The notes beneath the pieces are model-generated. The model worked only from the letters and a program-made list of their open reading frames with translations, was not told where the DNA came from and did not search any database. Made by a program: the position numbers and the translations under genes. Source: Escherichia phage WPEC5. From it: a stretch of 64,000 bases of DNA. The stretch lies in sequence record PV654397.1, one strand, 5' to 3'. This document shows, in pieces, positions 55,131-55,214 of the stretch (position 1 is its first letter; each line of letters begins with the position of its first letter).

Positions 55131-55214
55131 CTGGTAGTACTGGAGTCGAACCAGTCTTGTCATTTCTGACACGGATTAACAGTCCGTTGCATAAGGCCGA
55201 TATGCTAACTACCA
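55131..55214 (-). tRNA. tRNA, anticodon read as GUU (Asn), unusually long variable region
   Basis: hand-folded cloverleaf: acceptor TGGTAGT/ACTACCA, D-arm GCAT/ATGC, anticodon arm ACGGA-CTGTTAA-TCCGT, 15-nt variable hairpin, T-arm ACTGG-TTCGACT-CCAGT; CCA not encoded. Confidence 0.6.

Follow-up and report, generated by a model that had tools for sequence, protein, structure and literature searches.

By the textbook, a long variable arm marks the tRNAs for leucine, serine, selenocysteine and, in bacteria, tyrosine, and it is a key signal against confusion among the synthetases. How, then, is a tRNA gene to be understood that combines such an arm with the anticodon of asparagine? The gene in question lies on the minus strand at positions 55131-55214 of a stretch of 64,000 nucleotides (nt) of Escherichia phage WPEC5 (sequence record PV654397.1), and it is this whole stretch that we call the window. 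A sequence-only reading had noticed the combination and offered two ways out, an unusual phage tRNA or a misassigned identity. The first of these was right: the gene is a real and intact phage tRNA gene, and it is a member of a large family of long-arm, class II-like tRNA-Asn genes that is nearly confined to phages. We consider it probable that it encodes a functional tRNA for asparagine on a class II-like body. Genes of this kind are already known as tRNA-Asn annotations in hundreds of GenBank records; in the literature searched, which left most subscription journals outside, including older work on the tRNAs of phage T5, no description or explanation of a long-arm tRNA-Asn was found.

An intact tRNA gene with an extra arm

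ARAGORN calls a tRNA-Asn (gtt) at 55130-55214, and the Rfam model RF00005 is matched in its entirety by 55131-55214 with 47.5 bits (gathering score 29; E=3.5e-8), with a 12-nt insertion that falls in the variable region. The gene has 84 nt and does not encode the CCA end. Its acceptor stem of 7 base pairs (bp) is formed by the strands UGGUAGU and ACUACCA and is followed by a G as discriminator base (G73, position 55131); positions 8-9 are UA and position 26 is A. The D arm, GCAU-AUCGGCCUU-AUGC (55189-55205), has a stem of 3-4 bp, which ARAGORN draws in class II style as 3 bp closing an 11-nt loop. A 5-bp stem supports the anticodon arm, ACGGA-CUGUUAA-UCCGU, in whose loop the anticodon GUU stands at 55178-55180 (AAC on the plus strand), and another 5-bp stem the T arm, ACUGG-UUCGACU-CCAGU. 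The tRNA departs from a class I body with its variable loop of 4-5 nt in that the variable arm (55156-55170) is a 15-nt hairpin, GUCA-GAAA-UGAC-AAG, with a 4-bp stem, a GNRA tetraloop and a 3-nt spacer on its 3' side.

All helices are Watson-Crick throughout, with no mismatch in any stem, and U8, A14, G18G19, U33 and the T loop UUCGACU, which fits UUCRANY, are canonical. Folding for minimum free energy (MFE) without constraints gives the same five-helix structure at -28.0 kcal/mol (z = -3.4), a value that 0 of 200 shuffles equalled. What the sequence-only reading had folded by hand is borne out by these programs: the cloverleaf with its 7-bp acceptor, D arm and TTCGACT loop by ARAGORN, Rfam and the MFE fold, the loop CTGTTAA reading GUU by the unambiguous call of ARAGORN, to which that reading had itself pointed as a check, and the 15-nt variable region, which forms a hairpin by itself, by the MFE fold and by RNAalifold on homologues.

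A family of long-arm tRNA-Asn genes in phages

In a BLAST search of 50,697 phage records with the window tRNA, 239 matched, among them Klebsiella phage Muenster (92%), T4-like phages of Enterobacter, Klebsiella, Serratia, Erwinia and Citrobacter, and T5-like Proteus phages; in many of the records the ungapped alignment crosses the variable arm and the gene is annotated as tRNA-Asn. One T4-like member (locus L003) is identical to the window tRNA at 17/17 positions of the anticodon arm and 14/15 of the variable arm. A first viral pattern, consisting of the Asn anticodon arm GGACUGUUAAUCC, a gap of 14-30 nt and the start of the T loop, hit at least 120 viral contigs, and the matches listed hold about 100 distinct Asn(GUU) tRNAs, mostly long-arm and 79-94 nt in length. 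At least some 500 GenBank phage records contain a long-arm tRNA-Asn, T5-like, T4-like and Rak2-like phages included, and one 83-nt form occurs in 291 of the phage records, mainly those of T5-like Salmonella and E. coli phages (SP15, TrudiRoth/Bas30).

A less biased viral sample, for which nothing was demanded but the loop CTGTTAA together with the T loop GGTTCGAATCC, also gave at least 120 matches. Among the matches listed, new loci contain 113 Asn(GUU) genes, 9 of them with a long arm, and three further long-arm Asn genes lie in loci of the first scan, a share of about 8-10%; 15/504 tRNAs of other class I isotypes in the same loci have long arms; the long-arm members of this sample have diverse anticodon stems. 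Some phages hold a long-arm and a canonical Asn tRNA together.

In cells such genes are rare. The first pattern, run against 185,579 bacterial and archaeal species (one genome each), found 30 matches, of which about 18 are genuine long-arm genes; about half of these stand within large tRNA arrays (Micromonospora, contigs of metagenome-assembled genomes) and the others alone in their loci. No long-arm Asn gene was found by BLAST in 5,426 complete E. coli genomes, where the one marginal match is an ordinary tRNA-Asn; the window tRNA is therefore no prophage or host gene. The premise of the sequence-only reading, that long arms are normally limited to Leu, Ser and Tyr tRNAs, thus stands for cells and falls for phages, and the family shows that the textbook rule is not universal.

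Other tRNAs with unexpected arms were met on the way. In four Micromonospora or Verrucosispora chromosomes (loci L130, L131, L135 and L154), arrays of 23-36 tRNA genes have an Asn(GUU) of 89-90 nt as their sole Asn tRNA; its arm has a serine-like geometry in three of the four (6-bp stem, 1-nt spacer), and U1-A72 and C2-G71 are present in all four. Long hairpin arms occur in phages on tRNAs for Thr (loci L013, L077, L042 and L093), Cys (L007, L040-L042 and L067), Trp (L015, L045 and L109), His (L208), Lys with anticodon CUU (L188) and Met as well, with the discriminator expected for the amino acid of each anticodon; in T5-like phages the long-arm Asn is accompanied by a long-arm Thr(UGU) of 87 nt. 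The related phages WPEC3 (L001, 2284-2375) and Turkey3 (L002, 2048-2139) carry a long-arm tRNA of serine type whose anticodon is ACU; this anticodon is of the type with unmodified A34, which is unusual for bacteria.

Selection on the variable arm

Whether the arm is an accident of the window copy or a feature that is maintained can be read from the family. Among 106 sequences the modal arm has 0-1 unpaired nt, a stem of 3-4 bp, a 4-nt loop and a 3' spacer of 3-4 nt, and the architecture of the window arm (0-4-4-3) is of this modal class; the loop has 4 nt in 71 sequences and is GAAA in 41. The stem itself comes in 56 different sequences. A conserved architecture filled with varying sequence points to selection on the RNA.

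The pairing was followed with a covariance model (R1), built from a gapless alignment of 11 sequences, against which the 150 best matches were aligned; the window tRNA, whose sequence is within the seed, scores 90.1 bits. In this alignment 98% of cells are paired, as against 60% in shuffles and 34-46% with slid partners. In the 65 distinct Asn(GUU) rows the variable stem has its two central pairs formed in 96-97%, compared with 40-44% in shuffles (maximum 58-66%), and each is formed by four Watson-Crick types: UA 17, GC 17, AU 14 and CG 5 times at one of them, CG 22, GC 18, UA 10, UG 4 and AU 3 times at the other.

Because an alignment to a covariance model is fitted to that model, RNAalifold was run as an independent test. 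On a MAFFT alignment of 11 homologues, made without structural guidance, it returns five helices as in the window tRNA, and all four pairs of the variable stem show compensatory changes with none broken; since the homologues share the five helices, chance is excluded as the source of the structure. The acceptor stem covaries across the family too. In a 39-sequence MAFFT alignment hairpins of unequal length are out of register, and for that reason RNAalifold missed the variable stem there. A shuffle control on the best hairpin told arms and shuffles apart only moderately well, 47% of the observed arms reaching 4 bp or more versus 17% of shuffles; the counts of pairs by position are the stronger test. 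The covariation shows that the hairpin is kept folded by selection.

Amino acid identity

In bacteria the identity of tRNA-Asn consists of G34, U35 and U36 together with G73 and can be transplanted into tRNA-Lys, and U1-A72, a first pair typical of bacterial tRNA-Asn, is the determinant for the route through the amidotransferase GatCAB (PMC9976931). The window tRNA carries G34, U35, U36, G73 and U1-A72 and thus the complete known bacterial set. The conservation counts were made on 105 distinct long-arm Asn(GUU) genes, of which 102 have G73 and 73 have U1-A72. Comparison with the asnT/U/V/W genes of E. coli is in agreement: the anticodon loop is identical, the anticodon arm and the T arm agree at 16/17 positions each, and G73 and U1-A72 are shared, so that Q34, t6A37 and recognition by the asparaginyl-tRNA synthetase (AsnRS) would be expected in the phage tRNA. 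The acceptor stem, by contrast, is unrelated to that of asnT (4/14), and where E. coli tRNA-Asn has a 5-nt variable loop and a D arm of 4 bp with an 8-nt loop, the window tRNA has its 15-nt hairpin and a class II-like D arm.

Which of the class II tRNAs does the body resemble? In the same phage loci, tRNA-Ser has an arm of 5-7 bp with a 3' spacer of 0-1 nt and G or U as discriminator, tRNA-Leu an arm of about 4 bp with a 1-nt spacer and A, and tRNA-Tyr an arm of 3 bp with a 3-nt spacer and A; the long-arm tRNA-Asn genes have 3-4 bp, a spacer of 3-4 nt and G. Their arms are of the Tyr type, not of the Ser type. The likeness to bacterial tRNA-Tyr(GUA), with its arm of 3-4 bp and 3-nt spacer, extends to the D arm, a 3-bp stem with a loop of 10-11 nt (compare GAGCGGCUUU in the Muenster copy with GAGCGGCCAAA in E. 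coli tyrT), and the anticodons GUA and GUU differ in a single base. The window tRNA is unlike tRNA-Tyr in having G73 for the obligatory A73 and U1-A72 for G1-C72, and in its Asn-like anticodon and T arms. A comparison of nearest neighbours gave no clear signal of recent descent from a co-resident tRNA-Tyr, the nearest neighbour being a Tyr tRNA in only 6/54 cases.

The discriminator separates the long-arm Asn tRNAs from two of the three: G73 is unfavourable for the tyrosyl and leucyl synthetases (TyrRS and LeuRS), which require A73, and in the same loci every Tyr tRNA (39/39) and every Leu tRNA (65/65) has A73. Recognition by the seryl synthetase (SerRS) depends mainly on the long arm and G73 and takes no account of the anticodon (PMC9976931). 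Bacterial tRNA-Ser also has an invariant G1-C72 and keeps G2-C71, and this serine signature of both pairs is present in only 18 of the 105 family members; C2-G71, listed as an antideterminant for SerRS (PMC9976931), is present in 46. Among the long-arm tRNAs of these loci, those for Thr have A/U73, those for Cys U73 and those for Trp G73, discriminators that match their anticodons, which argues that charging follows the anticodon. Himeno et al. are said to have found in 1990 that acceptance of serine by a tRNA-Tyr took a lengthening of the arm plus A73G. The suspicion of a misassigned identity therefore finds no support: anticodon, G73, the shape of the arm with U1-A72, and the positional exchange with an ordinary tRNA-Asn described below all oppose it.

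If the gene is read as a functional tRNA-Asn, its expression and use can be outlined. Its transcription, shared with tRNA-Ser(GCU) and tRNA-Met, would start from a promoter that precedes tRNA-Ser, host enzymes would process the transcript and add the CCA end, and host AsnRS would charge it with asparagine by way of G34-U35-U36 and G73, as the identity rules predict. AsnRS would presumably tolerate the extra arm, since it is expected to read only the anticodon and the discriminator. The tRNA may then read AAU and AAC, which together make up 65 per 1000 codons, and supplement or back up the host tRNA-Asn. The genome of the phage is AT-rich and its demand for AAY codons is high: in 65 open reading frames (ORFs) of the window AAU accounts for 42.7 and AAC for 22.1 per 1000 codons, so that AAY makes up 6.5% of codons.

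Several points weigh against a functional tRNA-Asn. G73 and the long arm double as partial determinants for SerRS. Class II synthetases approach the tRNA from the side of the variable arm, and a clash of the arm with AsnRS is conceivable. The window tRNA has the atypical combination U15/G48, unlike the registered family members, which mostly have G15-C48 or A15-U48, and an equally atypical U at position 21. Finally, the family statistics rest on loci selected by pattern, each of the two viral scans having given at least 120 matches.

Exchange with an ordinary tRNA-Asn

The position of the gene in the genome provides a separate argument for asparagine. The window belongs to a Rak2/121Q-like jumbo coliphage whose closest record is Escherichia phage fEgEco12, 97% identical wherever 54000-57000 can be aligned. 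The long-arm gene and the HNH gene that follows it form a cassette of 716 bp (54508-55223, minus strand) which behaves as an indel unit in the comparison of these phages and Muenster. At this site fEgEco12 lacks the cassette and has instead about 300 bp with a canonical 73-nt tRNA-Asn(GUU) adjoining the same tRNA-Met, and Klebsiella phage Muenster has the cassette, with 715 bp and 79% nucleotide identity. The comparison shows that the cassette has replaced the ordinary tRNA-Asn allele of the closest relative; the canonical gene at the same position implies that the two tRNAs may be functionally equivalent. In the sequenced neighbourhood of the window phage the long-arm gene is the sole Asn tRNA.

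Muenster also allows one to gauge the constraint on the tRNA. The first 8 and the last 57 nt of the two tRNAs are identical, and the differences are confined to the D arm and position 26; with 57/57 identities in the last part against 79% in the neighbouring HNH gene, the tRNA is far more constrained.

The HNH homing-endonuclease ORF of the cassette (54523-55065, minus strand, 180 amino acids) lies 64 nt downstream of the tRNA and was assigned by its match to PHROG 2255, HNH endonuclease (E=4.5e-31), the Pfam HNH and NUMOD3 matches lying below threshold; it is 76% identical in amino acids to the ORF after the Muenster tRNA-Asn. Homologues adjoin long-arm Asn genes in seven other loci. A specific association of HNH and Asn genes was rejected, as members of the HNH family are found next to tRNAs of at least 14 further isotypes and the loci had been preselected for long-arm Asn.

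Homing endonucleases linked to tRNA genes are a known feature of phage clusters, as with SegB of T4 and the F-Tfl HNH enzymes of T5. The window cassette is like these in that tRNA and adjacent HNH gene are inherited as a unit which displaces a relative's allele, and unlike them in that it spans jumbo phages of E. coli and Klebsiella. The long-arm gene moves between phages in a cassette with an HNH homing-endonuclease gene.

Possible roles of the arm

The role that we can most readily entertain for the arm, without going so far as to call it probable, is that of a tolerated or stabilising body plan on an identity that needs only the anticodon and G73. The family offers a natural test case in which AsnRS, EF-Tu, the modification enzymes and the ribosome face a class II body with a class I identity. 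Long-arm tRNAs of this kind may also be orthogonal scaffolds, and annotation pipelines should anticipate them.

A more speculative role is that of an anti-defence device. The arm stands beside nt 40 and 41 of the anticodon stem, and together with the altered D loop it might make the tRNA a poor substrate for nucleases that cut tRNAs, such as AriB of PARIS, so that translation of AAY codons would go on after the cleavage of host tRNA-Asn. AriB has E. coli tRNA-Asn(GUU) among its validated secondary targets and cuts it between nt 40 and 41, and the Lys, Thr and Asn tRNA variants of T5 are jointly needed to neutralise PARIS; a second AriB subunit has been modelled on U16-U17 of the D loop, and U16C impairs cleavage (PMC12409363). 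The window tRNA is an isoacceptor of this AriB target. It has C16 in a restructured D loop, and its hairpin is two to three base pairs from the AriB cut site, which is suggestive. The share of long-arm genes among viral Asn genes, set against their near absence from cellular genomes, speaks for this role as well, as does the fact that the four tRNAs of the window all have NNU anticodons (Thr UGU, Asn GUU, Met CAU, Ser GCU). The window tRNA retains U36AAUC/C41, identical to the cleavage site of E. coli tRNA-Asn (cut at the slash), whereas the canonical Asn tRNAs of T5 and fEgEco12 are altered there, as though there were two alternative routes of escape.

Other observations make us doubt an escape from nucleases. 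Long arms are found on Cys, Trp, His and Met tRNAs too, which are not known AriB targets, the long-arm members of the less biased sample have diverse anticodon stems, and the canonical Asn tRNAs of many enterobacterial phages are 91-93% identical to asnT, anticodon arm included. The idea that divergence at the AriB site is required of canonical Asn tRNAs in phages but not of long-arm ones was rejected as a general rule, because so many enterobacterial phages have canonical, host-like Asn tRNAs. The tRNA-Asn of T5, which is effective against PARIS, is canonical, and so is the 77-nt tRNA-Asn of Bas34 (SelmaRatti), a PARIS-sensitive phage; being canonical, the latter is uninformative on long-arm tRNAs. 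The word "variable" is absent from the study of PARIS and AriB (PMC12409363).

The comparison with T5 is instructive in both directions. Its tRNA-Asn(GUU) is likewise a phage isoacceptor with changes in the D loop, encoded in a tRNA cluster interspersed with HNH genes (PMC12409363), and it differs from that of the window in being canonical, with 78 nt including CCA, a short variable loop and substitutions at the AriB cleavage site. Reading of the T5 gene (locus L123, 33952-34029 of NC_005859) suggests mismatches in the anticodon stem (GCAUC / GUUGA), which would be consistent with T5 variants altered around the AriB site. With some reserve, we speculate that phages have repeatedly put the Tyr-type arm on tRNAs which in all cells are class I, chiefly Asn but also Thr, Cys, Trp and others, as a "non-self" mark; tRNAs so marked would be charged and used as usual and would escape the nucleases of host or phage, such as AriB, and the window tRNA would be one of them, spread by the homing cassette. 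On the evidence this is possible rather than likely. The question is timely, since the PARIS nuclease was recently found to attack host tRNA-Asn and phage tRNAs are now regarded as tools of counter-defence. Were it true that the arm blocks nucleases, it would amount to a new principle of escape, in which the shape of the tRNA is changed rather than the sequence of the cleavage site.

That the tRNA is not used in translation at all, as a decaying pseudogene or as a decoy which titrates a nuclease or another tRNA-binding factor, we hold to be very improbable. The atypical U15/G48 and the missing A21 would suit such an account, as would the presence in some phages of a canonical Asn tRNA beside the long-arm one, and Belukhina et al. 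consider that viral tRNAs, when over-expressed, might inhibit AriB competitively (PMC12409363). The helices are free of mismatches, however, and G18G19, UUCGACU, U8, A14 and U33 are canonical; purifying selection is strong, as the comparison with the Muenster cassette attests; the acceptor stem covaries, and G73 and GUU, conserved in more than 100 divergent members, are relevant only to charging and decoding. In the sequenced neighbourhood this is moreover the only Asn tRNA, the canonical one having been replaced.

Just as little can be said for an arm that acts in the DNA, where an insertion of about 10 nt would split the site of a homing endonuclease aimed at canonical tRNA-Asn genes and so immunise the genome that bears the cassette, with the RNA hairpin as a tolerated by-product. 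The single cassette of tRNA and HNH gene, which replaced a canonical tRNA-Asn, and the seven other loci in which HNH homologues adjoin long-arm Asn genes fit this idea; yet the HNH family is found beside all those other isotypes, in loci that were chosen for long-arm Asn, an HNH homologue is missing from the neighbourhood of most long-arm Asn genes, and it is the architecture of the arm (stem length, GNRA loop, spacer) that is conserved and not its sequence.

The allo-tRNAs of bacteria and phages share with the window tRNA a long arm and anticodons outside the Leu, Ser and Tyr sets (Mukai et al. 2017, PMC5389517). They differ in their acceptor and T stems of 8/4 or 9/3 bp, where the window tRNA has 7/5, and in being suppressors charged with Ser or Ala (PMC5389517), where the window tRNA has the Asn set. 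Least credible of all is a missense tRNA that would be charged with Ser (or Tyr or Leu) and recode Asn codons: SerRS disregards the anticodon and relies chiefly on the long arm and G73 (PMC9976931), the window tRNA has G73, G2-C71 and C11-G24, and allo-tRNAs are natural Ser-charged tRNAs with foreign anticodons (PMC5389517), but its arm of 4 bp with a 3-nt spacer departs from the 5-7 bp and 0-1 nt of phage and host tRNA-Ser, its first pair is U1-A72 where bacterial tRNA-Ser has the invariant G1-C72, many family members carry the SerRS antideterminant C2-G71, G73 disfavours TyrRS and LeuRS, and an exchange with a canonical tRNA-Asn between phages about 97% identical and alike in codon usage, at 6.5% AAY codons, makes recoding implausible.

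Neighbouring genes

All four tRNA genes of the window, those for Thr(UGU), Asn(GUU), Met(CAU) and Ser(GCU), are encoded by the minus strand. The tRNA-Met(CAU) (55227-55305; ARAGORN, Rfam) is the upstream neighbour of tRNA-Asn, 12 nt away and in the same apparent operon, and tRNA-Ser(GCU) (55460-55549; ARAGORN, Rfam) is the first gene of an apparent Ser-Met-Asn-HNH transcription unit. A sigma-70-like promoter match, TGGACA-17-TATAAT with TG (55556-55584, minus strand), which is a match to the consensus only, ends 7 nt before tRNA-Ser and suggests that Ser, Met and Asn may be transcribed as one unit.

The tRNA-Met has 79 nt according to ARAGORN and an enlarged D loop. Its anticodon stem is of the type ACGAC/GUCGU, as compared with CCCCC/GGGGG in fEgEco12 (L124, 3811-3889), despite flanks that are 97% identical, and the record of one relative labels the counterpart tRNA-Ile. 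Two ORFs overlap the tRNA-Asn and tRNA-Met genes, one of 76 amino acids on the minus strand (55117-55347) and one of 59 on the plus strand (55064-55243), and both are almost certainly shadow ORFs; in the GenBank records of some relatives similar "hypothetical proteins" lie over tRNA genes, or the tRNAs are omitted. Three tandem paralogous ORFs of 54 amino acids (MTHEEWM...) occupy 56776-57262 on the minus strand, two of the copies being about 82% identical in nucleotides; a Pfam search with one of them (57098-57262) found no domain.

A second cassette lies at 52320-52858 and consists of an HNH ORF (52326-52733, minus strand) and tRNA-Thr(UGU) (52786-52858), a gene with 36% GC and the odd T loop GUGCAAU; it supplants two tandem tRNA-Thr(UGU) genes of the relatives. 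At 57371-57794 a PD-(D/E)XK endonuclease ORF (57372-57776, minus strand; Pfam PDDEXK_5, 78 bits) occupies the exact site of tRNA-Ser(UGA) in fEgEco12, WPEC3 and Turkey3, a tRNA gene having here been replaced by an endonuclease gene.

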